Source: Candidatus Omnitrophota bacterium (GTDB lineage: Bacteria > Omnitrophota > Omnitrophia > Omnitrophales > Aquincolibacteriaceae). Taken from it: 39,257 bases of DNA. The notes under the pieces are model-generated. The model ran no database searches. It saw nothing but the letters and a program-made list of their open reading frames with translations, and had not been told where the DNA came from. This document shows, one piece after another, positions 1-13,172 of this stretch (position 1 is the first letter of the stretch; each line of letters begins with the position of its first letter). Both the position numbers and the translations under genes were made by a program. The DNA is taken from assembly GCA_043803685.1 (NCBI GenBank), contig JAZDJU010000080.1, positions 1 through 39,257 on the forward strand, read 5' to 3'.

Positions 1-1961
1 GCTTCACCTGTAAGGAGTTGGGGATCTCTGATTACATTTCCCTCTCCGTCGACGCCGAACATTATTTTCTTTCCATCAGGTTGATTCATGTCATAGATCC
101 TGACAAGTGTCATTTCTGTGCCAGCTGGCACTATTTGGTCATAATTGAGAAGCCCGAGATCCTCAGGAAGCAAATCGAACGCCTTCGTTACCACGCCTCC
201 GGGATTTTTGGATAGAGCCTCAAAAGCTTTGGCGACCCGCTCCTGAGCTTCAATCTGTTCGGGAGATTCATTCCCTAAAGCTTTCATAACCTCAAGAGTC
301 ACTCTATAAGTAATGGCTTCCTGGATCAGGACCGGCACATTTTCCCCCAAGAGGATATGCATGATCTCATGCGCAATCTTGATCGCGAGCCACTTAGCCC
401 TCTCGCCCGACGGGATCTCCTGGTAGGCACCTTGATCGACGATCACCGTGTTCAGTCCGATAAACGCCATCGCAAAAGATTTTGGCCCGGATCTCATAGC
501 TTTGTACTTTTCAGGATCAATCCCGGAAAGGAAAACAACCTTCACCCGATACGCTTCTTCGGGAAGGATCTGCTTTTCCACAAGGAGATCGATCGCGCCC
601 TTCACCACCGCCGTCTCTTTTTCAGAGAAGCTGATGGAATCCCTGAGATCTTTTTCAGTCACTCCTTTGAGTAGCCCCTGACTTTGCACGGCCTCCCACA
701 ATTGAGGAAAGTCGAATTGCACCTGCTGCGAGCGGGCGCTTGAAGAAGCGCTGAAAACTTTCAGAGCCGCATCCTGAAACTTCGCTCGGGGACTCGCGCT
801 CGAACGATCCTTTTTCACCGTATCCGCGATCTTCCGAACCGCATCCTGCATTGCGTTGCGAGCTTCGCTCTCAGAAAGACCGTTCAACGTAGTTTCCATG
901 GCCCTAGCAAGATCCATCGCTCTTGTATCCGCAGGATCTTTGAGCCCAGCCTCATAAAAACCCAACCCAACCAGAAAAAGTTCGGCATACGTTTGCTGTA
1001 GGGACTTTGGCGCCGAGGGATCCATGGATGCGACATAACGTTCCCATAACATTCCCTTGGGCTCATAAATGCCCCGAGGCATTGTCCCGTCAGCGATGAT
1101 TTCCCTGTTTCCAGAATGATCCATTCCTCGCAGGTGAATGACCGGGCGGGACGGATCTTCAGCTGTCAGGCTCCGGATCTGTCCGGCTAGCGCCTCGTCA
1201 CGGATCTTCATCCTCTCATCGCCCCATCGAGTGAACTGCTCGAAGGCACTCATGGCCTTATCAAGACTCCCCTCGCCCAACGCCTCAAAGAACTGTCCGT
1301 AGAAGAGATGGCTGAGCCAGTAGCACAAGGAAGATTCAAAGTCAGGGGCTTCAAATACAACGCCGGGCACATTCGCCGCCGCAAGCGCTTTCAATTCGGC
1401 CCCTCGGAATGTAGCCGCAGGACCGCGCCCCTGGGTTTCGCGAATCAGCTTTTTGGGATCATTAACACCATAGGTCTGAAATCCCTTCCGGGAGGCATAG
1501 AACTTATGCGCCTCTTCGTCGATCCTGGCGCGGATCTCCGGATCCCCTCGATAAAGATCCAGCAACCGGCCCACTCTTGCAAGATCGTCTTTCTCCGGGA
1601 CCTTCCCGGAAAGAAAGGACACCCGACCGCCCTGGAGATCGCCCAAAAGCTTGTTCAGATAATCCGCCCAACCGGTTTCCAGGATGGCCAGGGCATTCGG
1701 CTTGCCGTTCGCTAAACGAGGCGCTTTCATCACGGCCTCGTTGATCAGTGATATCACTTCACGATTCAGGTTTTCAACACCATCGTGCATGACAAATCCC
1801 AGATAGAGAGGTATCGTTCCTGCGCTTGCCGCAACCGGCGCCACAACTGGCGTGGAAACCTGCTGCACCATACCCGCACGCAGATCTCCCGTGAATAGAA
1901 CCGATAACGATAAAAAGAGTGTCAACATCCCAGTCGCAACGATCCGCGAAATAGACATTCC
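1..1961 (-). other. Giant protein module: internal Sec-type signal, TraB/Tiki-like domain, HExxH zincin
   Basis: GMSISRIVATGMLTLFLSLSVLFTGDLRA; VMHD, ILETG, VFEAP, IRDEAL, LRGMDH (about 1090-1810); KIAHEIMH...IQEAIT (HEIMH at 357-371). Confidence 0.6.
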
Positions 1962-4900
1962 CCGCACCTCGGAGCGTTTTTCAGGGACTTCCGATCGAGG
2001 CGCTTGTTCGGATGGGGTTTCAGAGAGTTTATCCTTGAGTTCAGCAACCTTCGCTTTAGCATATTCAACGTACTTATCTAACAAATAATTTGTTTCGGCC
2101 GCCTCTATAAACTTTTCGAACTGGGCGAGAGCCTCCCTGATTTCTCCCGCGGAATTCAAGAGATTACCCAGCCTAAAATAGGGCATAGGGGCCCAGGGCT
2201 TCAATTGACTTGCTTTTTCATAACTCGCCCTGGATTTCGCATAACTCACGTGGGCCGTCGGATAACTCCCCAGGGTTTTGCCATATTTGCCCTTCAATAA
2301 GTAAGCATCACCAAGACCCATATAATCCGTAAAAACGGCAGGTGACATCTCATCCTCGGCATATCCAGGATTCAAACGAATCGCGGCTTCATATAGTTTA
2401 ATGGCATCATCCAAACGAGAGGGGACCGTCATTAACTTATCTCCCAGATTGATGTAAGCATCATGATTCTTGGGATTCAGAGCGATTTGCTGTCTATAGA
2501 GCATTTCCATACGCGCCAAATCTTTGGGAAACACTATCCCCGTGACCACCGCATAATTCCAAAGAAAGAGTTGTATCGCCTCCTGAAACGGTATCACTCT
2601 GATAGCCTTACGAGTGTCCAGCACGACCCCCTCAGGCGGGATCTCACCCCTCTCTAGCTTCGGCCGCCGCTCGTCACTGGAAACAATGCTCGCGTCACGA
2701 TTCTCTGAGGAGGGATCAATCCAACGATATGTTCCGTCTGATAACTCCACCACATTAAAAGCATGTCCTATAAACAACCTATCGCCGGGATAACTCGCGA
2801 CCCAATTTTGAATTCCAAGGTCTTCGAGGTACTTCCCGGCAAAAATGCTTCGGAATACGCAACTCATTTCGCCGCCAGAACGCCAGACCGGCCCAGGAGC
2901 AGCTTCCAAAGCGCCTCTCTCCGGCTTACTCGTATCCACCCACCCGGGAAGCGCTAGAATGGGATCCAGAATTTTCCTGATCGCATCAAGCTCCGCCTGC
3001 ACAACTTGGGGTGAATCGTCACCGTACTTCTGCTTGGCTTCAGCGATCGATTTTTTCAAGCCCGGCACGTTGATCTTCCATCCAAGATAATCTGCAAGGA
3101 GCTTCTGAGTGTCCTTCACGCCTTTAAAATAGGTCGCATACTCAAGCTCGACGAGAATCGTCTGGATCACCAGATCGGTCAGCTTACGCGGGAGATCCAG
3201 CGCCCTGATACTTTTTTCGGCATCCCCTTTCCGGCCAAAGATCTCTTCGAACAATTGGCGTTCCTCTCCACTCAGTCCAAGACGGCTGTAGAACTCCTCG
3301 TTCATTCCCTGCCGCAACGTTTGCTCCACTCCGTTCCCTAACGCGTCGACCGCAGATCCCGCGAGCATGGCCCCCACCCCGGAAAAGGCACTGATCAGGG
3401 ATTGCTGTTCGGGACTGATCTCTCCTCCCCGAGACTTCGCCAGTTGAGTCATGTGATCCGCCATCCCAATGAGCTGCTTCGCTACCTTGGGGAGAAGCAC
3501 ACCCTCACGAACACCGTTGGGAAGCCCTTGAATGACTTTAAGAAGATTGAGAGCCTCTTGGAGCGATAAATTTTCGGGAAGCTGGAAATGATAAACAGCA
3601 CCCTCGCCTTTGCCGGTCACGCTCGGTTTCAAATAGTTTTGGGGCGGGTTCTTCACAAATTTCAGCTCAACACCCCCGGTAAGATTAAACCACGACAAAA
3701 TATCCTTCGTATCGCTATCGAAGCTGATCCCAAACCGGGACAGCACATCTTTCAACGGTAATGTCATCACATCCTGGACAATGGCGTTCTCCAACACGCC
3801 TCCTTGCTGAACCAGCGTCGTTGCAAAACGCGTTGGAACTTCCAGCGTCGCTGCCCACGAAGCCGGCCCATCCAACACCGCAACCCCCGCAGCAGCACCT
3901 AACAATTTCAGAAATGACCTGCGAGACAAGACTGGATTTGTTTTAGCCACATCCGCCGCAGCTGAAATCACCCCATCTCCCCGCATCTCGGAGCGATTTT
4001 GCGATTCACCTTGAGTCGTTTCGATTGAGCTCTCGGGTTTCTGAAGATTGGGCCATAAACTAGGATCTTCAGCGATTTTCAATTCCTCTTGAATCTCTTT
4101 GATGGAGATCCAGGCCGCCCGAACTTCACCCGACAATCCAGGATAATCATGGGCGAGTGACAAAACCTTTTGAAACTGTGCGAGCGCACCTTCAAGATTC
4201 CCGCTATTTTTTAAAATGCCTCCAAGCACTCGAAATTGTCGCAAGCCACCAGGATCCAAGGCGATCAACTTATCAATTTCCGGGATTGCGTCCTCATACT
4301 TTTCAGTTGCAATTAAAGCATCCACAAGGCGAGACCGTGCAATTAAAAGTTTTGGATCCAATGCGATCGCTTGTCTATACGCATCAATAGCCTCTCCAAA
4401 CTTATCCACCCTAGCATATCGTCCACCCTGATCGAAATAGAACTTCGCAGATACAGGATCAGGAGGTTTCTCGCTTCGCATCTCTTCGATGATTTTTGTC
4501 CCCTTAAGAACCGCATCAAAATTGTGACGAAAACTCTCCTTGATCGTGGGCTTAAAAGGAAGAATCCGAGCCGAATCCACGCCAGAGGAATCTCTGAGAT
4601 TTATCAAACGGATCCCAATTTCCGGGATTTCTTTAATACCTAAGTGAGCGTTGAGAATGCTGTAAGCTTTAGGACGCGATGGCTCCACCCATATAAACCT
4701 TCCGTCTGACAATTGGACTAAAAGCAGTATGTGGTTTGCCTTTTCGATAGAACCCGCATAAAACTCGGGTAAGACGCTCCACAGTTTGATCCCAATTTGT
4801 TCCATCTCCTCCCCGCCAATAGCAACTCGCCCTAAACAATTCAGTCTATTGGTAAGTGCCATCCAAGAGGGAGAGGCTTCCACAACTATCGTGGCTTCTT

Positions 4901-7900
4901 CCGTATCCTTGTAGACCCAACCGGGAAGCTTAACGAGCACCTCCACAATTTTTTTGATCGCGTTAAGTTCTACTTCTGACGCCTTTTCTGCTCCCTTCTT
5001 TCTGGCATCCTCGATCGCTTTTTTCAAGGCAGGAATATCGACACCCTTCAAATGTTCTCCGTCGAAATATTCTTTATAGCGCATCAGACCCTGAAAATAC
5101 GCCACCGCTTCAAACTCACTCCGGACTTGATTCACAGCTAGGCGAAGGGCCCTATCCCAAAGCCCGAGCTCGGATATTGCCACGCTCGAAGCACTTTCAC
5201 CAAAATACTGCTTGAATTTGTACCGCTCTTGATTGTAAAGGCCCAAGGCCTTGAATACTTGTCTATCCATCTCCTCCTGCAAGGGCATGGCCCGGATCTC
5301 TTCCAGCGTTGGAAGCACATCTGTCTGGACCGTGGTCAGTAAACTTGTCCCGATCCCGTAAAATCCGTTGATCATCGCAGCTTGTTCAGCCGTAAGTGCC
5401 TGTGTCATCGCCAACTGAGCCATCAGGACCGCCGTAGATTTGAACGTCTCAGCAACCTGCGAAAGGAACACATTGGGGTTGCTACTATGAGGCAGCTTTT
5501 GCAACACCCCAATGAGTTTCAAAGCTTCGCTGACCGTTAAGTCTTCCGGCAACGCGTAATGGTAAACAGCATCACGGCCTTCTCCCTCCATGCTCGCCGG
5601 CTTGTAAAAATCTTTCGCCGGTTCGAGTTTCTCGCGTGGAACGAACTCCACCGTAAAATCCCCACCCGCTAACTTGAGCCACGCCAGATCCACCGGTTCG
5701 CCCAACTTGACGGCCTTACCATCGCCTGCGAAACTTTGCCGCTCCGCTGCTGTCCCGAAAAGAGGCGTACTCATGACCTTAGCCGACAGGGAATTCGCCT
5801 GCACTTGCGCTAAACTCTCCGGCGAGAGCGTTGCGAGCGGCTCCGTCGCGTTCACCTGCCCCCCTCCGCCAGACAATGCCAACATAACCGTGATCAACAA
5901 AACCGTTAGAGACTTTTTAAGATCCTTCCATCCCCGCATCTCCGAGCGCTTGGCCGCTTTTGCTTTTTCGGCCGCGGCGACAGTATCTGCCTTGGCAGCT
6001 GCGGCAATATCCTTTTCGTTTCGCGTATTGAGCCCCTCAAAATGATTTCCGAGGTGCGGCATGAGCTCTTCCATTTTCAGGATTGGAAGCTTAAGAATAA
6101 GGGTGTCAAAAGAACTTTCGCCAGAGAACTTCTCTGTGAAAATGCTCAGCGCATTCCAGATTTTAAAAGTAACCGGATCTGTGACAAAGACCGAGTTCCT
6201 TTCTTTGACGACCAAATACGCCACGGAAGGCTTGCCCGATTTCAACGTGGGATCCATCTTTTCCCCTTGCGGAGGGAATGGTTTCCCGGAAGCAAGCACC
6301 GTCAATTGAAACAATTCTGTCAGACCCGCATCTTCAAGTTCTCGAAATTCCTTTTCGGAGCGTAAGGATAATAACTTTTGATAAACCCTCCGTTGCATAT
6401 GGTCTGAAAAAGCGGCGCTTTTCTCCTTCCCCATCAGACCCGCCATGAGGGCATAGCCTGCACGAACTTTTGTATCACGGAATAACAGCCCGTATTTAGC
6501 AACGCCGGGTTCATTCAAAATAACCTCGCCCTTCTGCCGGTAGATCTCTACCGCAGCCTCGTAATCCCCCCCCGCTGCTTCGACCTCCCTCCGGATATCC
6601 TGAGCGTGTTCCAAAACCTTCCCCATAAAATCAATATCCTCAGGGCTCAGATCCCGCTCCTGCTCCACCAATGCAAGAGGATCGAGACCGTGAGAAGCCA
6701 ACACGGTGATCACCCCCTCAATATCAATGGGCCCGGGCGTCGAAACGGGTGAATGCAAGTCCGCGCTAAATCCCACATAATCCTCTATGGGACCAAGGTT
6801 TTCATTGAGATGGAGTTCCCGTAGATACCCGATCACCGTCTCTCGATGCTCTGGATATTTCCGAGCGAGAGCTTTCACCCTTTGAGCGATCGTGTCCGCC
6901 GAGACCACGGGATCTTCCCCGCTCAGGTTGTAGTGCGCCACATCCAGCACGATCCCGAGATTTTTGAGCGCTCCCGGATCCTGCTCCTTCACGAGCTCGA
7001 AAATATCTTCGAACGCATCCATGAACCCAGCCGATTTCGTGTAATTCTTCTTCCCCGGCGTCTTGTCATGGTAATTTTCAAGATTGATCTTGAGGTCCGG
7101 AGCTGCCTGGCTGGCGTAGAGCACCAACTCGGCATAAGCCTTTTTCGCCTCCGGGCTGAGCGTCATCAAATGAACAACGATGCCGGCCGCTCCGATCTCC
7201 CCCGCGAACCGGATCTGTTCTTTCATGAACTCCGGATTATCCGCCGCGTCCTCAAATAAAAACTGCGCGCCGACCGCCGGCCCCACAATGGAACTATGAA
7301 CTGTCAATTTGATCCCCGTCTTTTCAAGGAGATCCTTAATAGCGTCTTTATATTCAGGCGAGTATTCGCCTGGAAGTCGCCGGGCACTAACCGAACCAGG
7401 TGCAAACCCAGCAGCATACGGTAAATTGTCGAAGGACACTTCAACGTGGGTCAAGCCGCGGTTGTAAGCCTCACGAATCGCTGAAAGGATGTCTCCCTCG
7501 AGATTAAAAAACGCAGAGGCGCCCGCCTCAATGGTCTTAGTGCCTTCCTTACGATCTAGTCGCTGAGCTCCCGGCACATTTCCTGCAACATATTCTGTAA
7601 CGCGCGATTGGAATTTTCCGGCTAATTCCTCCGGCTTCGACGCGGCCTTTAAAGATTCGTAGGTCGTGGCAAGCTTGAAAAGACAGTACGGTTTCCCAAG
7701 CGTCTCGGCCCCCGCTTCTCCGAGGCGATCAAGCGCCCCAACCACCGCCTTCATGGTCCCCTCTTGCAGCTTGTAGGTTCGTGGAGTCCCGTCAGGGCCC
7801 CTGACCCGCAATCCTGCGATCATCGCCTCCGCATCGCGAACCGCCTGATCCCCCCTCACTTCCGAGCGTTTGGGATCAGCATTGAACTTAGGCTCCGCAG

Positions 7901-10900
7901 TCACTGCGTCGGGCAGGGTCACTAGCAGAATCGCATCCGGGACCTCGTTTACCTCAAAATAGACTTCCGGTCCGTCCTTTCCGGGTCTTGTTTTCTGGAC
8001 GGGAACATAAACGCGGCCTGCTAATTGCGTACGACTCAATGGACTCCATATGACCTCGGGAATCGGACGGCCGAAAGCCTTGGAGGAACTTTCGATCGCG
8101 GCTATGTCCCCTGGATTGATGCCTCCCTCGTCCTCAGGATGAGAATGATAGCTGAAGAGATAATTACCGTAACGAGCGAACACCTTTGGAAGCCGCTGCG
8201 CGAGAACGGCTGACTCCAAAAATTCGCCTTGCTGATTTATCACCAACTGAACATCTTCACGCCTGTTGCGAAGCATGAGGGTTTCACCCGTCTTCCCCAG
8301 CGTCACAGCATGAGAAGATGTTTCCAACGATTCAAGGGCTTCCTCGAACGATCCTCTCAGCCGGACCCCCGTCTTTTCAAGGATCAGCTCTTCAATGTTC
8401 CGCTCAACCGTCCGCCCGCCTTGATCCACAAGCGCCTTGACGGACGAATGGTCTCCATTCCGAAGCACCACGGGAAAGGACTCTTCGCTTTGGCCTTTGA
8501 TCGCAATAACAATATGGGAATGATCAAACAGGATCTCTGCCGTGGCACTCGCCAGGGCCGTTTCACGAGAATCCTCCAACGCAAATTCCATCTGATCGGG
8601 AATAATTGTCAATAGGACGGAAACCCCTTTCGGAAGTGTTCCATTCCGGTGGCGCGTGCCCACATCGATAACCATCGCGTCATAGGCGGCCCGAAGATCT
8701 TTCGCTCCCGGGACCAAAGACTCTAATGTTCTAATATTTTGCTCACTTTTAGGATGAGAAATTCTGTCGTTCGCATCTAAATAATCCAGAGGGTATTTTT
8801 GCGAACGGAAAGCACTCCATAAAAGCCCTGCGAGGCCGCTTATGGCTCCAACGAATAGAGACACACCCCAGAGGACCACATTCTCCCAGTTCGAAAATAG
8901 ATCCGTCCTCGCTAAAAACTCCGCAATTAAAAATGAAGCAACCGCCCCTCCCGAAATGGCGCATGCAGCCACCACTCCCCCCCAATACCGATTGATCCAT
9001 TTCTCAACAGCCTCCTGACGATCAAAAAACTTCCGCGCCGCAGGGGACACCCCTGCTAGCACCGGCAAAGAAATACTCGCATCGACAGGTTCAAATTTCT
9101 CCAGCAACTCCTTATCCCTCACCTCCGAGCGCCCATCCGCCGGCGTCGTGGCGGGGACTGCGCTGGGTTGTGTAGTAACTTCACTTGGCGTGGCAGGTGA
9201 AACCTGAGCGGCGGGTTCTCCCCTCTTTTCGGAGCGGACTTTCTTTTGCACCGGAAAACCCGACTCGTCCACAATCCCCTTCGCTACAGCAAAAGATTCG
9301 GCAAAATCTTCTTCGGGCGCCATTTCTGGCGAGTACCATCCATCCCCGGTCTCTTTCCCTGACGCTATATTCTGGCCGTGGGCGGTCACTCTTTCACGAG
9401 CCGACCATGTTTCTCTTTGTTCTTCCGATAATTTTTTCTGCCACACATGGTGACCCGCTTCGTGCAATACGATATGTTCGAATGCGCCGGGATCAAACGC
9501 AAAATCATCCACGCTTGCCAGAGCCATAGTATCGTTGTCTAAATACGGTCCACCGTCACCCAAACGCATCCCGGATACAAGTCCGGCCGCGCGTTGATCA
9601 CGCACAAACCGAATATCCTTGACTCCGAGGGACCTCAAAACGTTTTTGACGGTTTCCGAAAGACCACGGATCCTCGAATAAGGCATCAACGGATCGACCC
9701 AAAACCCGTCGATCAGTTCGTATCCGGCATTTCGATACGCCTCTGCTCGTTTTGCCCGTTGCCTGTCCGCAGTCAACTCGTGGCTTGCGTTCAACAATTC
9801 CCTAGCCAACTGCTGGTTCCGCGCTGCTTCCGAAGAAACCTTTTGCCCGTTTCGAAACCTTAACGCCTCTTCTTCACTACGAACCCATGTTTTTTTGTCT
9901 TCGGACAGCCGGTACAAATGATCTTCGAATTCGTCCTGAGTTATAATTTTAAAGGCTTCCGCGCGTCCCAAAGAATCTCCGGCCTCGAACCTTCTCCGAA
10001 TGTCAGCCTCCTTTTCACTGGCAATATCCAGTGCGGTCCGCGCCTCCGAGCGCTTGAGCGCCGGCGTTGCGGCGGGGTCCATCCCTGTTCCCGGAGTACT
10101 AGGGACCGACCTTGCCTGTTGGGCCTGACTTATCATCTCGCTCAAAGCTTTCTCGTATAGCACACGGTAAGCAAGAAAGGACATGGCCTGGGCAGCCCCG
10201 AGCCCTATCTCAGGTTTAGCGATGCGCTTTCCCTCGGCCTGGATTTCCTTCAGTTCCTCATCGCTAAGAGTAATTTCACGCTTGGCTTGATCAGGAACCT
10301 TTTGCGGATTCTCGACACCTTCCCAGGGAAAATACGGGTAGCGCCTTACACGTTTTAGGTTGGGATCGACTACGTAGGGATCTAATACATCGAACGTATT
10401 CGTTGATGATTTCTCATTCGTACCGAAAAGTCGAAATCCGTCAGTGTCGGTTAAAAGATGGATGACAGGCTTCACACCTTTCGACAGATCAAAGCTACTG
10501 TAGTTGGATGTAGAAATAACAGTCCCCTGCAACCTCTTAAGAAATTCTTCCACCGGCATTGCCAGATCTGAATCGAGGCCGGAAGCTTTTTTTCCTCGAA
10601 AAACAAAGTAGAAGTAACTTTTGACAGGCCAAGGCGGTTGGCCATGAAAGCCCATCACGGGAAGCTCATTGACTCCGATCCGCCGGACCTCATTTTCAAG
10701 CTCCGCAATGTCGCTCTCCAGCGTCGCCAAACGCGACTCGGATCGCTTACCCACCGTCCTAGCTGGAGTTTCAGTGCTCGGGACGCCAAGCGTTGTGGTA
10801 ATTCGCCCGCCCGCGGACGAATTGGGTGCGGCAGATGTTGGAAGATTATTGGTTTGGGATACTGGGCCTGTGATGGGCGTTTTGGCCGCAAGCTTGTTCA

Positions 10901-13172
10901 TGTCAGCCAGCATCGCCGCAGCAACGGCTGAGGGTTCTTGGCCCAGATTCGTGGCAACTTGATTCACGATCGGAGCGATCTGATCCCTAGCGGCATCAGC
11001 GCCGATAGGTTTTATCTCTCCCTTGTCAGTCTTCTGCTTGATGAGTTCTCCCTGCACAGCCAACCCTTGCGCCAATATGGGACTTACCTGCCCGGCCGGT
11101 GCCGGACTACCCGCCAAGTCTGTTAAAACATCTGTGATCTGATCGGTCGTAGCACCCACTTTCCCAATAGCCTCGAGCGCTTCGGCTTCCTGGAGACGGA
11201 TGACGCGATAAATCTTCCGGCTGTTCTTTTCCCCGATCGGTGTCAGAGCGATCTGGATCCCCGCATTTTTGGCATAATCAGACTGGTTAAAGATCCCGAT
11301 AGCCCCATCCACCGTCCCATAATCACCGGCACGTCCGATCGCCCGCAGGACCGGCATCAGATTTCTAAGAACGTCTTGTCCTCCCAACTGTTCGCCTTGC
11401 GCCCTAAATGATTCGAGACGCGACACGGCTTCCAGGTAAGAAAGCTCGAAGGTGCTAGCTTTGTTCTGGAGCATCACACTACGATAAAGATTCTCGTCGG
11501 ATTTTTCGCTGAGGCGCGGGGTGAGAACACCGTAGCTGATCTCATGTTCCCTGAGAAGCTCCGTAATGCCGTCGGTGTGGAAACCTCCCGTGATCACGAC
11601 CGCTTTACTGAGAGATTCCCGGCGCATGACGGTGTCGATCTTTTCGTAAAAGACGTCCTCTCTTTTCCTCGCCGCTTCGTAGAACCGGTACGCCGCTTCC
11701 TGCACCTCAGTCACGGCCTTCTTGAAATTGGGATTGACCGGCTTTGTCTCGAAATTGGAAAGCGGCAGGTTAAGCTGCTGACTCACTAAGATTCCGATCT
11801 TCTTGAGCTCCCCGACCATGGCCTCCATCGAAAGGACTTCTTCCCGGCCAAGCACCTCCTGCCAATCCTTGCGGGTCAATTCGAGATTCAGAAGCTTTCG
11901 AACCAGCTCTTCGTCCCTGTAGAGCGCGAGAAGAGCTTTCTGCTGCTCTGTCGCGGCCAGTTTGTCGAGGATCCGCGTGAACAGGCTCCGGATCTCCGTA
12001 AAAAGACTCTTCGGATCCAGCTCGCTTTTCAGGATGAGATAGCCCGCATAAAGACTGAAGTGAGGATAATCGGAAAATCGAAATCCCTTCGGCCCCGCCT
12101 CCATAACGAGCTGTTCCATGAGATCTCGCGGCTCGATCGGACCCGCCTGGCCCGCCACACCCGTGCGCATCACGCTCAGCCGCTGATCCTTGAAATTCTC
12201 GATCGCGGTCACGAGCTTCGGGGAAACTTTTTTCTCCTTCAGGAACTTGATCAGGGTATCCCGTTCCGAAAGCCCCTTGGCCGTATCGAGTTCTTTTTCC
12301 ATGGCCTGGAGGACCAAAAGCCTCGTGGTCTGCGGCCATTCGACCTGCGCGAGCAAACTTTCAAGATCGATTCCTAGCACTCGTTTCGCTTCCGCGGTGA
12401 GATTGCGAATATAGGGCATGAACTCCCGGTGACCTTTTTCGAATTTCTTCCATTCCCCGAGTAGTTTGATCAGATCGCCCGGGAACACTTTGGAGGCAAG
12501 ACCGGAGAGCCGCCCTTCGAAACCGTCGAGGTACTTTTTTACCGTTGCCTCCGAACCAAACACTTTCTTGAGCGCTTCGTAGTTCTCGCGATAGAGCTCC
12601 GCGTTCTCGATGCCGTGAGCCCTGACGGCGGAGCCGTCAGACTGAAGACTGGAGACTGGAGACTGGAGACTAAAATCCTTCTTGCTGCTGTCTGTGGTCT
12701 GCGGTCTATAGTCTTTATCTGCTTCTAGAAGATAAAGTTCCGCTCCCGTGAGCTCTCCCTGTTCTGCGAGGAATTGCGCGAGCTTCAGGTTCCGCTCCTT
12801 GTCCGGGAACATCTTGAGATAATCAGGATTGAGGTCCTCAGAAGCGCCTTCCACGAAGAGCGTCTTGATGCCATAGGATTTGTCGAGATACTGCAAAAGC
12901 TGTTTGATCTTCTGCTGAGCTCCGTAGTTGGCGTGCGCGTTCTGGATATGCAGGATGAATTTCGGATCGGCGTGCGGCGGCGCCTCGTATAAGCCATCCA
13001 GCGTCGCCAGTTCGTCGGGGATATCGATCTGGAGAAAACCGGGGGTTTCGCGGACCGCCATCATCGCGATCCCGGCTCCGGGATCCGCGAAGGTGACCTG
13101 GCTGGACAGAAAGCAGGCCAACGTCAAGAGACTCGTCGCGCGAATGAGTTTTTGTTTTACTTTCGAAAACAC
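1..13172 (-). CDS. Giant secreted multidomain protein (>=4390 aa, 3' end outside the window)
   Basis: GTG at 13172 with SD AAAGGGGGA at 13181-13189. N-terminus MFSKVKQKLIRATSLLTLACFLSSQVTFA is a Sec signal. Hand translation found no in-frame stop down to position 1, and the ORF track lists no closed minus ORF in this frame. Catalytic motifs occur throughout. Confidence 0.95.
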   Translation of the reverse strand, partial: MFSKVKQKLIRATSLLTLACFLSSQVTFADPGAGIAMMAVRETPGFLQIDIPDELATLDGLYEAPPHADPKFILHIQNAHANYGAQQKIKQLLQYLDKSYGIKTLFVEGASEDLNPDYLKMFPDKERNLKLAQFLAEQGELTGAELYLLEADKDYRPQTTDSSKKDFSLQSPVSSLQSDGSAVRAHGIENAELYRENYEALKKVFGSEATVKKYLDGFEGRLSGLASKVFPGDLIKLLGEWKKFEKGHREFMPYIRNLTAEAKRVLGIDLESLLAQVEWPQTTRLLVLQAMEKELDTAKGLSERDTLIKFLKEKKVSPKLVTAIENFKDQRLSVMRTGVAGQAGPIEPRDLMEQLVMEAGPKGFRFSDYPHFSLYAGYLILKSELDPKSLFTEIRSLFTRILDKLAATEQQKALLALYRDEELVRKLLNLELTRKDWQEVLGREEVLSMEAMVGELKKIGILVSQQLNLPLSNFETKPVNPNFKKAVTEVQEAAYRFYEAARKREDVFYEKIDTVMRRESLSKAVVITGGFHTDGITELLREHEISYGVLTPRLSEKSDENLYRSVMLQNKASTFELSYLEAVSRLESFRAQGEQLGGQDVLRNLMPVLRAIGRAGDYGTVDGAIGIFNQSDYAKNAGIQIALTPIGEKNSRKIYRVIRLQEAEALEAIGKVGATTDQITDVLTDLAGSPAPAGQVSPILAQGLAVQGELIKQKTDKGEIKPIGADAARDQIAPIVNQVATNLGQEPSAVAAAMLADMNKLAAKTPITGPVSQTNNLPTSAAPNSSAGGRITTTLGVPSTETPARTVGKRSESRLATLESDIAELENEVRRIGVNELPVMGFHGQPPWPVKSYFYFVFRGKKASGLDSDLAMPVEEFLKRLQGTVISTSNYSSFDLSKGVKPVIHLLTDTDGFRLFGTNEKSSTNTFDVLDPYVVDPNLKRVRRYPYFPWEGVENPQKVPDQAKREITLSDEELKEIQAEGKRIAKPEIGLGAAQAMSFLAYRVLYEKALSEMISQAQQARSVPSTPGTGMDPAATPALKRSEARTALDIASEKEADIRRRFEAGDSLGRAEAFKIITQDEFEDHLYRLSEDKKTWVRSEEEALRFRNGQKVSSEAARNQQLARELLNASHELTADRQRAKRAEAYRNAGYELIDGFWVDPLMPYSRIRGLSETVKNVLRSLGVKDIRFVRDQRAAGLVSGMRLGDGGPYLDNDTMALASVDDFAFDPGAFEHIVLHEAGHHVWQKKLSEEQRETWSARERVTAHGQNIASGKETGDGWYSPEMAPEEDFAESFAVAKGIVDESGFPVQKKVRSEKRGEPAAQVSPATPSEVTTQPSAVPATTPADGRSEVRDKELLEKFEPVDASISLPVLAGVSPAARKFFDRQEAVEKWINRYWGGVVAACAISGGAVASFLIAEFLARTDLFSNWENVVLWGVSLFVGAISGLAGLLWSAFRSQKYPLDYLDANDRISHPKSEQNIRTLESLVPGAKDLRAAYDAMVIDVGTRHRNGTLPKGVSVLLTIIPDQMEFALEDSRETALASATAEILFDHSHIVIAIKGQSEESFPVVLRNGDHSSVKALVDQGGRTVERNIEELILEKTGVRLRGSFEEALESLETSSHAVTLGKTGETLMLRNRREDVQLVINQQGEFLESAVLAQRLPKVFARYGNYLFSYHSHPEDEGGINPGDIAAIESSSKAFGRPIPEVIWSPLSRTQLAGRVYVPVQKTRPGKDGPEVYFEVNEVPDAILLVTLPDAVTAEPKFNADPKRSEVRGDQAVRDAEAMIAGLRVRGPDGTPRTYKLQEGTMKAVVGALDRLGEAGAETLGKPYCLFKLATTYESLKAASKPEELAGKFQSRVTEYVAGNVPGAQRLDRKEGTKTIEAGASAFFNLEGDILSAIREAYNRGLTHVEVSFDNLPYAAGFAPGSVSARRLPGEYSPEYKDAIKDLLEKTGIKLTVHSSIVGPAVGAQFLFEDAADNPEFMKEQIRFAGEIGAAGIVVHLMTLSPEAKKAYAELVLYASQAAPDLKINLENYHDKTPGKKNYTKSAGFMDAFEDIFELVKEQDPGALKNLGIVLDVAHYNLSGEDPVVSADTIAQRVKALARKYPEHRETVIGYLRELHLNENLGPIEDYVGFSADLHSPVSTPGPIDIEGVITVLASHGLDPLALVEQERDLSPEDIDFMGKVLEHAQDIRREVEAAGGDYEAAVEIYRQKGEVILNEPGVAKYGLLFRDTKVRAGYALMAGLMGKEKSAAFSDHMQRRVYQKLLSLRSEKEFRELEDAGLTELFQLTVLASGKPFPPQGEKMDPTLKSGKPSVAYLVVKERNSVFVTDPVTFKIWNALSIFTEKFSGESSFDTLILKLPILKMEELMPHLGNHFEGLNTRNEKDIAAAAKADTVAAAEKAKAAKRSEMRGWKDLKKSLTVLLITVMLALSGGGGQVNATEPLATLSPESLAQVQANSLSAKVMSTPLFGTAAERQSFAGDGKAVKLGEPVDLAWLKLAGGDFTVEFVPREKLEPAKDFYKPASMEGEGRDAVYHYALPEDLTVSEALKLIGVLQKLPHSSNPNVFLSQVAETFKSTAVLMAQLAMTQALTAEQAAMINGFYGIGTSLLTTVQTDVLPTLEEIRAMPLQEEMDRQVFKALGLYNQERYKFKQYFGESASSVAISELGLWDRALRLAVNQVRSEFEAVAYFQGLMRYKEYFDGEHLKGVDIPALKKAIEDARKKGAEKASEVELNAIKKIVEVLVKLPGWVYKDTEEATIVVEASPSWMALTNRLNCLGRVAIGGEEMEQIGIKLWSVLPEFYAGSIEKANHILLLVQLSDGRFIWVEPSRPKAYSILNAHLGIKEIPEIGIRLINLRDSSGVDSARILPFKPTIKESFRHNFDAVLKGTKIIEEMRSEKPPDPVSAKFYFDQGGRYARVDKFGEAIDAYRQAIALDPKLLIARSRLVDALIATEKYEDAIPEIDKLIALDPGGLRQFRVLGGILKNSGNLEGALAQFQKVLSLAHDYPGLSGEVRAAWISIKEIQEELKIAEDPSLWPNLQKPESSIETTQGESQNRSEMRGDGVISAAADVAKTNPVLSRRSFLKLLGAAAGVAVLDGPASWAATLEVPTRFATTLVQQGGVLENAIVQDVMTLPLKDVLSRFGISFDSDTKDILSWFNLTGGVELKFVKNPPQNYLKPSVTGKGEGAVYHFQLPENLSLQEALNLLKVIQGLPNGVREGVLLPKVAKQLIGMADHMTQLAKSRGGEISPEQQSLISAFSGVGAMLAGSAVDALGNGVEQTLRQGMNEEFYSRLGLSGEERQLFEEIFGRKGDAEKSIRALDLPRKLTDLVIQTILVELEYATYFKGVKDTQKLLADYLGWKINVPGLKKSIAEAKQKYGDDSPQVVQAELDAIRKILDPILALPGWVDTSKPERGALEAAPGPVWRSGGEMSCVFRSIFAGKYLEDLGIQNWVASYPGDRLFIGHAFNVVELSDGTYRWIDPSSENRDASIVSSDERRPKLERGEIPPEGVVLDTRKAIRVIPFQEAIQLFLWNYAVVTGIVFPKDLARMEMLYRQQIALNPKNHDAYINLGDKLMTVPSRLDDAIKLYEAAIRLNPGYAEDEMSPAVFTDYMGLGDAYLLKGKYGKTLGSYPTAHVSYAKSRASYEKASQLKPWAPMPYFRLGNLLNSAGEIREALAQFEKFIEAAETNYLLDKYVEYAKAKVAELKDKLSETPSEQAPRSEVPEKRSEVRGMSISRIVATGMLTLFLSLSVLFTGDLRAGMVQQVSTPVVAPVAASAGTIPLYLGFVMHDGVENLNREVISLINEAVMKAPRLANGKPNALAILETGWADYLNKLLGDLQGGRVSFLSGKVPEKDDLARVGRLLDLYRGDPEIRARIDEEAHKFYASRKGFQTYGVNDPKKLIRETQGRGPAATFRGAELKALAAANVPGVVFEAPDFESSLCYWLSHLFYGQFFEALGEGSLDKAMSAFEQFTRWGDERMKIRDEALAGQIRSLTAEDPSRPVIHLRGMDHSGNREIIADGTMPRGIYEPKGMLWERYVASMDPSAPKSLQQTYAELFLVGLGFYEAGLKDPADTRAMDLARAMETTLNGLSESEARNAMQDAVRKIADTVKKDRSSASPRAKFQDAALKVFSASSSARSQQVQFDFPQLWEAVQSQGLLKGVTEKDLRDSISFSEKETAVVKGAIDLLVEKQILPEEAYRVKVVFLSGIDPEKYKAMRSGPKSFAMAFIGLNTVIVDQGAYQEIPSGERAKWLAIKIAHEIMHILLGENVPVLIQEAITYRVTLEVMKALGNESPEQIEAQERVAKAFEALSKNPGGVVTKAFDLLPEDLGLLNYDQIVPAGTEMTLVRIYDMNQPDGKKIMFGVDGEGNVIRDPQLLTGE
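1977..3980 (-). other. Giant protein module: internal Tat-type signal, transglutaminase-like Cys-His-Asp domain, TPRs
   Basis: SRRSFLK (3906-3926) followed by LLGAAAGVAVLDGPASWA; MSCVFR (Cys 2859-2861); GHAFNVVELSDGTYRWIDPS (His 2763-2765, Asp 2715-2717); TPRs at about 2100-2500. Confidence 0.8.
3996..5933 (-). other. Giant protein module: internal Sec-type signal, transglutaminase-like Cys-His-Glu domain, TPRs
   Basis: GWKDLKKSLTVLLITVMLALSGGGGQVNA; NCLGR (Cys 4836-4838); NHILLLVQLSDGRFIWVEPS (His 4731-4733, Glu 4683-4685); TPRs such as AIDAYRQAIALDP at about 4150-4440. Confidence 0.75.
6660..7530 (-). other. Giant protein module: AP endonuclease 2 / xylose isomerase-like TIM barrel (endonuclease IV-like)
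   Basis: LTVH, IVVH, INLEN, LDVAH, ELHLNEN, ADLH, GPID and LVE appear in the order of the endonuclease IV metal ligands. Confidence 0.85.
7869..9116 (-). other. Giant protein module: two TM helices plus JAB/MPN domain
   Basis: Hydrophobic hairpin at 8808-8987. FSYHSHPEDEGGINPGD (HSH...D at 8106-8147) is HxHx7(N)x2D, with an upstream candidate Glu in RREDVQLVI. Confidence 0.65.
9237..10037 (-). other. Giant protein module: zincin metallopeptidase
   Basis: IVLHEAGHHVW (HEAGH at 9450-9464) with downstream EDFAESF (9291-9311), the third-ligand pattern of anthrax lethal factor-like zincins. Confidence 0.8.
11460..12960 (-). other. Giant protein: N-terminal TraB/Tiki (EreA/ChaN-like fold) domain
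   Basis: Ordered motifs HIQNAH (12933-12950), LFVEG (VEG at 12846-12854), GIEN (12603-12614), FY..A..RE, and AVVITGGFHTDGITELLREHEISY (GGFH at 11577-11588). This matches the H...E...E...R...GxxH pattern of the TraB/Tiki family; no HMM was run. Confidence 0.55.
12639..12714. repeat. Heptamer tandem/inverted repeat inside the giant CDS
   Basis: Five AGACTGG-like units, a spacer, then four inverted GTCTnnn units; the reading frame is kept. Confidence 0.85.

Follow-up and report, generated by a model that had tools for sequence, protein, structure and literature searches.

RESULTS

A giant open reading frame of eight modules

The stretch of DNA analyzed here (the window; 39,257 nucleotides) is the whole of a contig from an Omnitrophota bacterium, and one end of it is occupied by a giant open reading frame (ORF) that is open at the 3′ end because the contig ends there (Table 1). 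The database entry P0002 is identical to this ORF. Its neighbors in the window are fabF, rpsA, aromatic amino acid genes, scpAB and trpS; we found no mobile-element or toxin-secretion context around it, and Pfam searches revealed neither RTX repeats nor a CPD domain.

The encoded protein is made up of eight modules separated by the sequence RSExR. It starts with a Sec-type signal peptide, in which aa 4 to 28 form a lone helix in the AF2 model, followed by a conserved head (AF2 pLDDT, 78) that gave no PDB fold match with an E value below 0.4, no profile match and zero Pfam or NCBIfam matches. A hydropathy scan of the whole protein found few strongly hydrophobic stretches, namely, a hairpin at the start of module 4 and three stretches behind RSExR copies; there were also a weaker stretch (aa 3776 to 3794) and three short peaks of 11 residues within globular parts. 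Modules 2, 3 and 5, which served as internal negative controls, have no hydrophobic stretch in the region after the motif.

Table 1. Features of the giant ORF in the order of the protein. Slashes within sequences mark candidate cleavage sites; for the motifs, the first residue is given.
Feature	Position (nt)	Strand	Residue(s)	Basis or remark
Giant ORF, 4390 codons	3..13172	minus		GTG start at 13172; frame open at 3′ end
N-terminal Sec-type signal peptide, entire protein	13086..13172	minus	1-29	...QVTFA/DPGAG; sequence
Conserved head, family hallmark	11193..13085	minus	to ~660	BLAST, alignment A1
RSESR junction, head/module 2	10731..10745	minus	810
RSEAR junction, module 2/module 3	10038..10052	minus	1041
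HEAGH zinc-peptidase-like motif, module 3	9450..9464	minus		Motif; no Pfam match
RSEKR and RSEVR around 30-residue P/T/S-rich linker	9117..9236	minus	1313 and 1348
Two-helix membrane hairpin, module 4 start	8808..8984	minus	1397-1455	Hydropathy
RSEVR junction, module 4/module 5	7854..7868	minus	1769
Xylose-isomerase-like TIM barrel (AP_endonuc_2), module 5, signal-less	6627..7376	minus		PF01261, E 1.8e-12
RSEMR junction, module 5/module 6	5934..5948	minus	2409
Sec-type signal, module 6	5847..5933	minus	2414-2442	Sequence
Module 6 body: helical domain, alpha/beta domain, TPR repeats	3996..5846	minus		Pfam TPR, alignment
TPR repeats, module 6	4149..4448	minus		Pfam
RSEMR junction, module 6/module 7	3981..3995	minus	3060
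Tat-type signal, module 7	3852..3980	minus	3065-3107	TIGR01409, sequence
Module 7 body	1977..3851	minus		Module 6 paralogue; same Cys/His domain plus TPR repeats
RSEVR junction, module 7/module 8	1962..1976	minus	3733
Signal or N-terminal anchor, module 8	1875..1961	minus	3738-3766	Sequence, hydropathy
Module 8 body: unassigned domain plus C-terminal HExxH domain	3..1874	minus		Ends at contig edge
HEIMH of module 8 HExxH domain	357..371	minus		Motif

The junction motif in the window protein and its relatives

RSExR occurs eight times in the giant ORF, compared with 0.075 occurrences expected from the amino acid composition; 2,000 shuffles of the protein gave a mean of 0.076 and a maximum of 2. 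The copies differ in their codons (CGA/CGC, TCC/TCG, GAG/GAA and CGT/CGG/AGG) and the motif is therefore conserved as protein and not as DNA. A near-copy, RSEVP, lies 9 residues upstream of the RSEVR at aa 3733.

Searches of species genomes returned 228 relatives, of which 79 loci were retained; where the titles of these loci name an organism, it is Omnitrophota or Omnitrophica, with one "Candidatus Taenariivivens baikalensis," and a genome carries several paralogues. The members share a plan in which a conserved, signal-bearing head (about 600 aa) is followed by cargo modules that vary and then by a conserved tail; R-[S>A>P]-E-x-R is found where modules meet. The head of the window protein is 21 to 66% identical to the heads of 27 giant proteins in BLAST alignments that cover the head only, and 16 of these 27, whose sole common part is the head, contain between 5 and 24 copies of RSExR. 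Nearly all relatives have an N-terminal Sec-like hydrophobic segment. The tail ends in [AS]-A in 39 of the 43 complete locus ORFs and has no signal of its own, and members of about 1,000 aa that consist of head plus tail have no consistent motif between the two.

Family statistics were calculated on 71 nonredundant members (252,435 aa). These contain 480 R[SAP]ExR motifs, or 1.9 per 1,000 aa, compared with 0.25 in the other ORFs of the same loci; at least three motifs are present in 53 of the 71 members and none in 8. Serine (393 observed versus 5.6 expected), alanine (75 versus 8.3) and proline (15 versus 4.0) are the only residues enriched at position 2, and the flanks are unconserved except for small residues at −1 and +1. 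The x is alanine in 15%, threonine in 9% and methionine in 9% of the motifs, and the choice follows lineage. Receiver domains start 3 to 14 residues past a motif and occupy the whole module. As judged by sequence comparison, the motif thus marks the places where modules meet in dozens of giant proteins of this family.

The cargo is highly variable, and most modules have no Pfam family match. The 18 of 129 modules that matched Pfam include receiver, PfkB, PRTase, methyltransferase, ABC1 kinase, CMP kinase and transaldolase domains, and one relative has an ADP-ribosyltransferase of the "polyvalent protein" type (ART-PolyVal in Pfam). Annotated cargo without a signal is of cytoplasmic type, and none of the 28 signal-bearing modules matched Pfam. 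The conserved neighbors of the family loci are housekeeping genes, with synteny kept in 28 and 18 loci.

Three internal segments with the make-up of export signals

The first-pass annotation of the window had described three internal signal peptides, each directly behind RSExR and more than 2,400 residues into the protein. All three segments are present where it placed them (aa 2414 to 2442, 3065 to 3107 and 3738 to 3766), and the translation of the ORF bears out their distance from the N terminus. Its description of a basic n-region, an h-region and an AxA-like site holds in full for module 6, but the long h-region of module 8 places that segment on the border between signal and anchor.

The module 6 segment has the n-region GWKDLKK, the h-region SLTVLLITVMLAL (13 aa; hydropathy peak, 2.76) and the c-region SGGGGQVNA/TE, with 6 K/R in the N-flank and 0 in the C-flank. 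In module 7, a 19-residue n-region precedes SRRSFLK, the h-region LLGAAAGVAVL (11 aa) and the c-region DGPASWA/A, with 4 K/R in the N-flank and 1 in the C-flank; this arrangement fits the Tat consensus S/T-R-R-x-F-L-K followed by a mildly hydrophobic h-region and an AxA-type site. The segment scored above the cutoff of TIGR01409 (19.5 versus 16.7 bits) and 0.1 bit under the gathering score of PF10518, the Pfam TAT_signal model (22.6 versus 22.7 bits). A Tat signal stands at the N terminus of a polypeptide, and as encoded, that of module 7 starts 3,064 residues into the ORF; it would become N-terminal only by a cut of the chain at RSEMR. The module 8 segment consists of the n-region GMSISR, the h-region IVATGMLTLFLSLSVLF (17 aa) and the c-region TGDLRA/G. 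It has 4 K/R in the N-flank and 1 in the C-flank and is neutral without the arginines of the motif; because of this and of the long h-region, signal peptide and signal anchor are indistinguishable here. Pfam, which has no model for Sec signals, returned nothing for the segments of modules 6 and 8, and none of the 5 multi-helix candidate ORFs in the locus flanks is TatC.

The positive charge lies on the N side of all three segments, so that they are all N-in and cannot alternate as successive membrane passes of one chain. In addition, modules 6 and 7 have h-regions that fall short of the length needed to cross a membrane.

Placement of hydrophobic and twin-arginine segments across the family

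The 71 members contain 212 strongly hydrophobic segments, 43 of which start within 45 aa after a motif (17.6 expected; P = 4e−8). Counted in bins of 15 aa, there are 4, 2 and 1 segments before the motif and 19, 15, 13 and 15 after it, with 6.2 expected per bin; hence, such segments are depleted immediately before the motif and about 3-fold enriched immediately behind it. With 480 motifs, this amounts to about 1 module in 10. Patterns of two arginines plus a hydrophobic stretch are concentrated there as well: 10 of 16 fall within the 40 aa that follow a motif (1.2 expected; P = 2.7e−8). Several of these look textbook, and one has a lipobox. The Pfam TAT_signal model scored 2 of the 7 cases tested, module 7 and L020, and NCBIfam found no Tat signal at an E value of ≤0.01 in 150 post-motif 60-mers that included 3 pattern-positive ones. 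The Tat pathway exports folded proteins posttranslationally, which suits a released module and not a chain of 4,000 residues.

Other family-wide comparisons were neutral and fell short of the picture seen in the window protein. The charge bias of post-motif segments was 28 versus 9 when the motif arginines were counted and 17 versus 16 without them, and post-motif segments did not differ in length from other hydrophobic segments (median, 16 versus 16). Moreover, positional enrichment after the motif would by itself also be expected if modules were captured genes. The first-pass proposal that cleavage at RSExR unmasks a signal for each module is upheld in part: the family lends it real but indirect support, through the junction position of the motif and the clustering of hydrophobic and twin-arginine segments behind it, and no protease was found.

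The loss of the charge bias without the motif arginines would fit a single, uncleaved giant membrane protein whose Sec translocation is started by the N-terminal signal; the hydrophobic helices further along would then halt or restart transfer and so weave the chain through the membrane, and RSExR would be a linker motif or a juxtamembrane motif that serves some other purpose. Such a chain would also fit the Sec signal at the start of nearly all members, the failure to find a protease by fold and profile searches of the head or among the neighbors, and the h-region of module 8, which with 17 residues could span the membrane; Omnitrophota giants are predicted to have SP+TM or TM topology in the accessible parts of two reports (10.64898/2026.06.07.730766; 10.1101/2023.11.21.568195). 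We nevertheless regard it as unlikely, because three N-in segments cannot alternate, 13 and 11 residues do not suffice for an h-region to cross the membrane, and a Tat consensus would have no role in a chain threaded through Sec, yet such patterns cluster behind the motif. In addition, receiver, kinase and methyltransferase modules would come to lie outside the cell and out of reach of ATP and SAM, and the upstream depletion and downstream enrichment of hydrophobic segments would be left unexplained.

The modules could also arise as separate proteins from internal translation starts rather than by proteolysis. The x is methionine before modules 6 and 7 (GAG ATG CGG in both), module 8 has GAG GTG CGG GGA ATG, with an ATG two codons past the motif and behind GAGGTG, and x is methionine in 4 of the 10 Tat-like cases compared with 9% overall. 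This last count is confounded by the lineage-linked choice of x, however, and x is also alanine (15%), threonine (9%) or, less often, another residue with non-start codons. In two of the three window cases the spacing from the GGAG-like bases to the ATG would be zero, and as the codons for S and E vary, a Shine-Dalgarno sequence is not conserved. We therefore consider internal starts very improbable.

Module bodies and persistence of the signals

Past its hairpin, module 4 contains HSHP...D at aa 1676, which we take to resemble JAMM. The alpha/beta domain of module 6 has a cysteine (Cys2779; 4836-4838) and a histidine (His2814; 4731-4733) that are invariant in 15 of 15 aligned homologues; the AF2 model of the module body (pLDDT, 78) matched the PDB in the TPR part only. 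Modules 6 and 7 are 28% identical over about 630 aa. The first 400 aa of module 8 have no homologue among proteins of 361 to 1,152 aa, and its body gave no atlas match and no PDB sequence match. The HExxH, JAMM-like and Cys/His modules are present in the window protein but are not family-wide.

Conservation of the segments in homologous modules, on which the first-pass annotation had made its claim depend, gave a divided result. The paralogues 6 and 7 both keep complete signals, of different kinds (Sec-type and Tat-type). The HExxH domain of module 8 is preceded by RSEAR and a Sec-like signal in P0003 (48% identity) and by a signal-like segment in L038, and the signals of these two other holders are intact and unrelated. 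Against this, P0003 and P0037 have a homologue of the module 6/7 domain after the motif without a signal; in P0031 and P0032, the homologue has an internal signal-like segment without the motif.

These data bear on the possibility that the signals are unused leftovers, brought in when genes of secreted proteins became joined in frame to the polyprotein gene. If the signals had no use, divergence of this extent should have eroded the charge, the h-region and the AxA pattern, whereas two paralogues at 28% identity both retain complete signals, one with an exact SRRSFLK, and the HExxH domain has intact, unrelated signals in two further proteins. The two homologues without a signal behind the motif would be at home in this explanation, as would the low proportion of modules with such a segment (about 1 in 10), and gene capture alone would produce enrichment after junctions. 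On balance, this vestigial-signal alternative, already raised in the first-pass annotation, is weakened, and we judge it distinctly unlikely.

DISCUSSION

Our preferred reading is that the giant protein is a polyprotein that is processed at the motif, that its modules are sorted individually and that the internal segments are working export signals; we put the probability of this reading at roughly 0.47. The protein would comprise a head that brings its own Sec signal at the N terminus, followed by a series of autonomous modules; the disordered linkers between them would each end in R-S-E-x-R, which is most likely the recognition site of a putative endopeptidase. A cut at or beside the motif would give each module a free N terminus, and only then would the three window segments become N-terminal. 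Most modules have no signal and would remain cytoplasmic, module 4 would insert into the membrane as a hairpin, and module 6 would be exported by Sec. Module 7 would fold first and leave by Tat, while module 8 may be exported by Sec or be held by its first helix as an anchor. What we observe is the motif, its placement at junctions and its conservation in the family, three segments built like signals, and an accumulation of hydrophobic and twin-arginine segments behind the motif; from these observations we infer proteolysis, the position of the cut, the compartment in which it would occur and the export of the modules. Neither fold and profile searches of the head nor inspection of the conserved housekeeping neighbors identified a processing protease. 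The N-terminal Sec signal is as compatible with secretion of the entire chain as with secretion of the head only, and in the head-plus-tail members of about 1,000 aa the conserved tail would travel out with the head.

The whole polyprotein might instead be exported into a host or prey cell and be cut at RSExR there, with the internal signals using the Sec and Tat systems of the victim. Omnitrophota have been proposed to be predators or parasites, as stated in the accessible part of PMC10066038, a lifestyle in keeping with this idea. The cargo is highly variable, mostly without a Pfam family and present in several paralogues per genome, it includes the polyvalent-type ADP-ribosyltransferase, and enzymes of cytoplasmic type are located behind a Sec signal. 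Yet the 212 strongly hydrophobic segments in 71 proteins should stall in the membrane of the producer during Sec export, and no delivery apparatus is linked to the gene, whose neighbors are housekeeping genes with conserved synteny. To our knowledge, no interbacterial effector has been described that depends on the Sec or Tat system of its victim. The "prey cell Sec/Tat" variant of the first-pass annotation is thus less likely, and we consider delivery to another cell improbable. More doubtful still is an extension of this idea to a cocktail of effectors from one gene for several compartments, in which cytoplasm-type enzymes would act in the cytoplasm of the victim and signal-bearing modules would reach its membrane or periplasm.

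Why would it matter whether these proteins are cut? In the accessible parts of their descriptions, the authors who reported giant Omnitrophota proteins ask whether these are one chain or are cut, and find the predicted locations of enzyme domains implausible. Posttranslational cleavage has been proposed for them, and one report states, as far as its accessible text goes, that the cleavage points are unknown (10.1101/2023.11.21.568195). In a 2026 preprint, internal signal peptide calls were removed as artifacts, and the words cleavage, polyprotein, motif and linker are absent from the part that is accessible (10.64898/2026.06.07.730766). With hundreds of copies in the family and with Sec and Tat signals placed directly behind it, the five-residue junction motif provides a concrete, testable cleavage map. 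This map offers a reason for the odd topology predictions of Omnitrophota giants and would allow their computational splitting into units that can be folded and annotated singly. Were processing confirmed, a site-specific peptidase would still have to be found.

As far as the available descriptions go, the window protein resembles the "Archaeovorins" and other very long proteins of the same phylum in its N-terminal signal and scattered hydrophobic segments, and also in its TPR/HEAT repeats, sugar metabolism and signaling enzymes and peptidase-like domains. It is smaller than these (4,390+ aa), and the head-plus-tail family is absent from their descriptions as far as these are accessible. The searchable literature yielded no account of the RSExR motif or of genuine signals inside a protein chain; the RSExR junction and real internal Sec/Tat signals are additions to what has been described for giant proteins.

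Among other systems that express several products as one chain, the polyvalent proteins encoded by phages and conjugative elements, like the MARTX toxins, are very large chains of enzymatic modules that have no relation to one another, and their cutting into separate effectors is presumed or established. In contrast to these, the window protein has no mobile-element context and, in Pfam searches, no RTX repeats or cysteine protease domain, and we know of no uniform five-residue junction motif and no internal export signals in polyvalent or MARTX proteins. The plastid polyproteins of Euglena and dinoflagellates and the gingipain polyproteins have a short conserved linker between repeated units and a dedicated peptidase, the gingipains being cut after arginine or lysine. 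There, one N-terminal targeting signal serves all units, whereas units of the window protein carry their own, differing signals. In the Flaviviridae and in the glycoprotein precursors of bunyaviruses, the products of one ORF are freed by proteolytic cuts, some of them at short basic motifs, and internal signal sequences route single products across the membrane, cotranslationally and with the signal peptidase of the ER in eukaryotic hosts. The window gene differs from these in being chromosomal and bacterial and in having a Tat-type signal among others. If processing is confirmed, it would be an equivalent of viral polyprotein expression on a bacterial chromosome, with sorting signals for individual products.

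A recurring motif divides the giant protein into modules

The giant protein contains eight copies of R-S-E-x-R, at residues 810, 1041, 1313, 1348, 1769, 2409, 3060 and 3733, against 0.075 expected from its composition and a mean of 0.076 (maximum 2) in 2000 shuffles. The motif codons vary from copy to copy; hence, conservation resides in the peptide and not in the DNA, and a DNA-level repeat or recombination scar is ruled out as the origin of the motif. The copies stand at the ends of low-complexity linkers with a high content of Pro, Thr, Ser, Ala and Glu, and they split the protein into eight modules. Tandem motifs within a linker, as in the table, are also seen in relatives, for example in the database proteins P0003 (residues 2562 and 2573) and P0005 (residues 1332 and 1345).

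Features of the contig and of the giant protein (forward-strand coordinates)
Feature	Position	Strand	Description
Giant ORF, 4390 codons	3..13172	-	GTG start; runs off the contig
Module 1			Head with normal N-terminal signal peptide
Module 2			No signal
Module 3			No signal
HEAGH, module 3	9450-9464
Tandem RSEKR and RSEVR	9117-9236		30 residues apart, inside a linker
Module 4			Two-helix membrane hairpin at start
HSHPx9D, module 4	8103-8147		Behind the membrane hairpin; presumably JAMM-like
Module 5			Xylose-isomerase-like TIM barrel (PF01261)
Modules 6 and 7			Paralogues with TPR repeats
RSEMR before module 6 segment	5934-5948
Module 6 segment	5847-5933		n-region GWKDLKK, 13-residue core SLTVLLITVMLAL, then SGGGGQVNA|TE
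Invariant Cys/His, module 6	within 4731-4838
RSEMR before module 7 segment	3981-3995
Module 7 segment	3852-3980		19-residue n-region, SRRSFLK, 11-residue mild core, ASWA|A
RSEVP near-copy	1977-2003		9 residues before RSEVR
GAGGTG, motif and Gly-Met, module 8	1956-1976
Module 8 segment	1875-1961		GMSISR, 17-residue core, DLRA|G
HEIMH, module 8	357-371		In C-terminal HExxH domain
ORF, 244 aa	13381-14115	-	Directly upstream of giant gene; no Pfam match, no relative in 79 loci
ORF, 284 aa	13546-14400	+	Directly upstream of giant gene; overlaps the 244-aa ORF on the opposite strand
Second large ORF, 1668 aa	34249-39255	-	Open at contig end; two GH94 supersandwich, GH94 catalytic and glucoamylase-like domains

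Three modules open with signal-like segments

The first-pass annotation had placed a signal-like segment directly behind the motif in modules 6, 7 and 8; all three positions proved exact, and the segments are real and far beyond chance. In a hydropathy scan of the whole protein the only strongly hydrophobic stretches were these segments and the module 4 hairpin, apart from a weaker one that closely follows the module 8 signal and three short peaks within globular parts. Nothing hydrophobic followed the motif in modules 2, 3 and 5, which act as internal negative controls. By its layout, the module 6 segment is predicted to be a classical Sec signal. The module 7 segment scores 19.5 bits with the NCBIfam Tat model (cut-off 16.7) and 22.6 bits with the Pfam Tat model, 0.1 bit short of the gathering score of 22.7. 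For the module 8 segment, a signal peptide and a signal-anchor are both plausible.

Lysine and arginine number 6, 4 and 4 in the 15 residues before the segments of modules 6, 7 and 8, and 0, 1 and 1 after them. If the giant protein remained uncleaved and crossed the membrane several times, successive passes would have to alternate in orientation; however, all three segments have their positive charge on the N-terminal side, and we consider such an arrangement unlikely. The modules could also be made from internal translation starts instead of by proteolysis. RSEMR precedes both the Sec and the Tat signal, the third motif is followed by Gly-Met behind GAGGTG, and the ATGs concerned would yield ordinary signal-peptide N-termini (MRGWKDLKK..., MRGDGV... 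and MSISR...). These features are suggestive, but at x the motif often has a residue that no start codon encodes, which makes internal initiation highly improbable.

The motif belongs to a family of head-bearing proteins in the Omnitrophota

The whole protein, used as query, brought up 27 others of 2856 to 7591 aa, the match being confined to the first 2 to 17% of the query; BLAST aligned 26 of them on the head, the conserved N-terminal part that extends to about residue 660. Where their source is named it is Omnitrophota or Omnitrophica, with one exception ('candidate division FCPU426'). Their precomputed Pfam domains are mostly of cytoplasmic type (phosphoglucomutase, phosphofructokinase, glucose-6-phosphate isomerase, glutamate dehydrogenase, CMP kinase and epimerases), and RSExR occurs 5 to 24 times in 16 of the 27 and is absent from seven. 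A profile of the head, searched against contigs of one genome per species, recovered 228 relatives with several paralogues per genome. Seventy-nine loci were kept, again from Omnitrophota or Omnitrophica where the organism is named, including one 'Candidatus Taenariivivens baikalensis'.

Among the 66 locus ORFs of at least 900 aa, R[SAP]ExR occurs in 57, and in 27 no other gapped pentamer is as common as RSE.R. Once three near-duplicates, ORFs below 1200 aa and ORFs with runs of X had been left out, 71 non-redundant members (252,435 aa) remained; they contain 480 motifs, or 1.9 per 1000 aa, versus 0.25 per 1000 aa in the other ORFs of the same loci, a background that comes in part from further giant ORFs. 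The second position is S in 393 cases (5.6 expected), A in 75 (8.3) and P in 15 (4.0), with other residues at background; most residues at x are V, L, A, M or T, and the sole visible preference in the flanks is for small residues at -1 and +1. Headless ORFs of 1400 to 3200 aa with 4 to 10 RSExR motifs lie in the same loci (L024, L066, L016, L076 and others). Some are probably frameshifted continuations, and others may form a second family that uses the motif.

A conserved tail module of about 300 aa ends in [AS]-A in 39 of the 43 complete locus ORFs (for example ...ATSVAA and ...LAASA; also considered were the database proteins P0049-P0070), and its C-terminal Ala-Ala would, by analogy, be reminiscent of degradation tags. 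Members of about 1000 aa have a head joined to a tail and nothing else, and no motif recurs consistently between the two. Given the motif-flanked modules, the conserved tail and these short proteins, the family appears to be built on a frame of head and tail that receives cargo modules bordered by the motif. Every member starts with a Sec signal. If the head alone were exported after an early cut, the tail would stay inside in the giant members and be outside, together with the head, in the head-tail proteins.

The motif may mark new N-termini

Known domains begin where a free-standing protein would begin: receiver domains, which take up entire modules of about 140 aa, start 3 to 14 residues past the motif. 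Hydrophobic segments follow the same boundary. Counts per 15-residue bin in the 71 members (6.2 expected) are 4, 2 and 1 over the 45 residues that precede the motif and 19, 15, 13 and 15 over the 60 that follow it, and 43 of 212 segments start within 45 residues after a motif, where 17.6 are expected (p = 4e-8). Outside the first 60 residues, the family contains 16 cases of a twin-arginine plus hydrophobic pattern, 10 of them within 40 residues after a motif (1.2 expected, p = 2.7e-8). Several are textbook-like, among them RPEIR-SDLSRRQFLTTVAAAAGALMLPGGALGA and RSEMR-AIARRSFLAELAAGTLGLLG, and a lipobox closes one of the 10. Tat exports proteins that have already folded; such a signal would suit a module set free from the chain, but not a stretch in the interior of 4000 residues.

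Other family-wide comparisons are neutral or negative. The charge bias of the after-motif segments is 28 versus 9 with the arginines of the motif and 17 versus 16 without them, and these segments do not differ in length from other hydrophobic segments. The NCBIfam Tat signal was found at E <= 0.01 in none of 150 post-motif 60-mers, three pattern-positive cases included, and of seven segments tested with the Pfam Tat model only module 7 and one from locus L020 scored. Pfam domains were matched in none of 28 signal-bearing modules and in 18 of 129 sampled signal-less modules, all of cytoplasmic type, a contrast that agrees, weakly, with sorting.

We hypothesize that the giant protein is a polyprotein that is processed at the motif and whose modules are sorted individually. 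It is our best reading, and we put its probability at slightly under one half. The first-pass annotation had likewise proposed that cleavage at RSExR unmasks an export signal for each module; the position of the motif and the clustering of signals lend this proposal partial support, but no peptidase acting on RSExR was identified in the head or among the conserved neighbours. It had also raised delivery into a prey cell, whose translocases would then use the signals, which we regard as very unlikely. One cargo module of a relative (locus L038, residues 894-1544) contains an ADP-ribosyltransferase of the 'polyvalent protein' type of phages and plasmids (PF18760, E 6.8e-12), and hints that part of the cargo is perhaps aimed at other cells.

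Signals are kept or replaced in some homologues and absent from others

Past their signals, modules 6 and 7 are 28% identical; the signal itself is of Sec type in module 6 and of Tat type in module 7. The Cys and His of their common domain are invariant in 15 of 15 sequences. In P0003 and P0037 this domain stands right after the motif without a signal; in P0031 and P0032, which lack the motif, it is preceded by an internal Sec-like segment and an internal Tat-like segment, FSRRAFLFGSLSLLL, respectively. Several other proteins have no such segment. P0003 has a domain 48% identical to the HExxH domain of module 8, immediately after RSEAR and a Sec-like signal, GVARTFALAALLLGTPSVSA|GG; L038 has the domain too, behind a signal-like segment without a strict motif. 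The RLESR before the L038 signal is not claimed as a degenerate motif, as R-L-E-x-R occurs at background frequency.

Conservation in homologous modules, the check proposed at first pass, thus gave a mixed answer: some lineages have retained or exchanged the signals, and others lack them. As far as sequences can tell, this pattern would fit use under selection better than decay. It falls short of proof, and we consider it distinctly unlikely that the signals are vestigial remnants of captured secreted proteins. An exhaustive search with module 7 for a free-standing homologue with a true N-terminal signal gave 16 matches, in which the domain is internal or which are fragments. The first 400 residues of module 8 had no homologue among proteins of 361 to 1152 aa, an atlas search returned no usable match, and the sequence search against the PDB was empty. 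The Cys/His-TPR domain also occurs inside a different protein family (P0030-P0045, P0031 and P0032 among them), which is characterised by a separate N-terminal signal and by a conserved LPxPGxMVxLSP...KGIKV...IPRKYFSGG region.

Peptidase-like signatures and gene neighbourhood

The cargo contains four peptidase-like signatures: HEAGH, the JAMM-like HSHPx9D, the Cys/His of modules 6 and 7, and HEIMH. Pfam recognises none of them, and each is missing from part of the family. The two invariant residues suggest that the Cys/His domain is a putative cysteine peptidase; a PDB fold search with the module 6 body matched the TPR part alone. The model of the head is good, with a pLDDT of 78 and a pTM of 0.73. 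The HIQNAH...VEG...GGFHT pattern of the head would be reminiscent of a TraB/Tiki/ChaN-like metallopeptidase, a candidate that we rejected as unsupported: the head has no Pfam or NCBIfam match, no PDB fold match (best E 0.41) and no profile match.

The window, a complete contig of 39,257 bases, is bacterial chromosome. The companions of the giant gene, all on the minus strand, are fabF, rpsA, tyrA, pheA, scpB, scpA and genes for DAHP synthase and an aminotransferase; trpS and genes for a histidine kinase, a P-type ATPase, a CNNM transporter, two SPFH proteins and a large GH94 protein lie on the same strand. The 1668-aa GH94 ORF resembles cyclic glucan or cellobiose-type phosphorylases. This context (rpsA, fabF and the 244-aa ORF) is shared by none of the 79 loci, whose flanks contain two synteny groups. 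In one, about 170 bases separate the giant gene from the end of an upstream UvrD helicase gene (28 loci), with lipoate ligase (25 loci) and glycine-cleavage genes (23 loci) farther upstream. In the other, a STAS-PilZ protein is encoded about 165 bases upstream in 18 loci, with MgsA and PheT behind it; upstream genes for PheT, MgsA and STAS-PilZ are each found in 18 to 20 loci. The conserved upstream genes, searched for a processing protease, include no peptidase and are housekeeping genes. In four loci an LPG_synthase_TM gene lies shortly downstream of the giant gene.

Comparison with known systems

In its accessible part, a 2023 preprint on giant genes (10.1101/2023.11.21.568195) proposes cleavage by C39 or S8 domains, states that lack of information on cleavage points prevented the splitting of the proteins, and doubts the predicted localisations of glycolytic domains. 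The accessible text of a 2026 preprint on complete genomes (10.64898/2026.06.07.730766) classes 916 long proteins by DeepTMHMM, treats signal-peptide calls from any chunk but the first as artefacts of chunking and downgrades them, and does not contain the words cleavage, polyprotein, motif, linker or proteolysis. As far as their accessible parts go, a 2023 Nature Microbiology paper (PMC10066038) calls the giant ORFs poorly understood and a 2025 eLife paper describes gigantic Omnitrophota proteins with TM segments and peptidases. The searchable literature, outside which lie preprint supplements and subscription journals, contained no relevant occurrence of RSELR, RSEVR, RSEMR or RSExR, and no relevant account of an Omnitrophica polyprotein or of a bacterial polyprotein with an internal signal peptide; titles and abstracts gave no account of twin-arginine signals in such Omnitrophota proteins. 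Giant Omnitrophota proteins and bacterial polyproteins are already known kinds. In contrast, because no relevant match was found and internal calls had been discarded as artefacts, the RSExR junction motif and the reading of the internal signals as real are new within the searchable literature.
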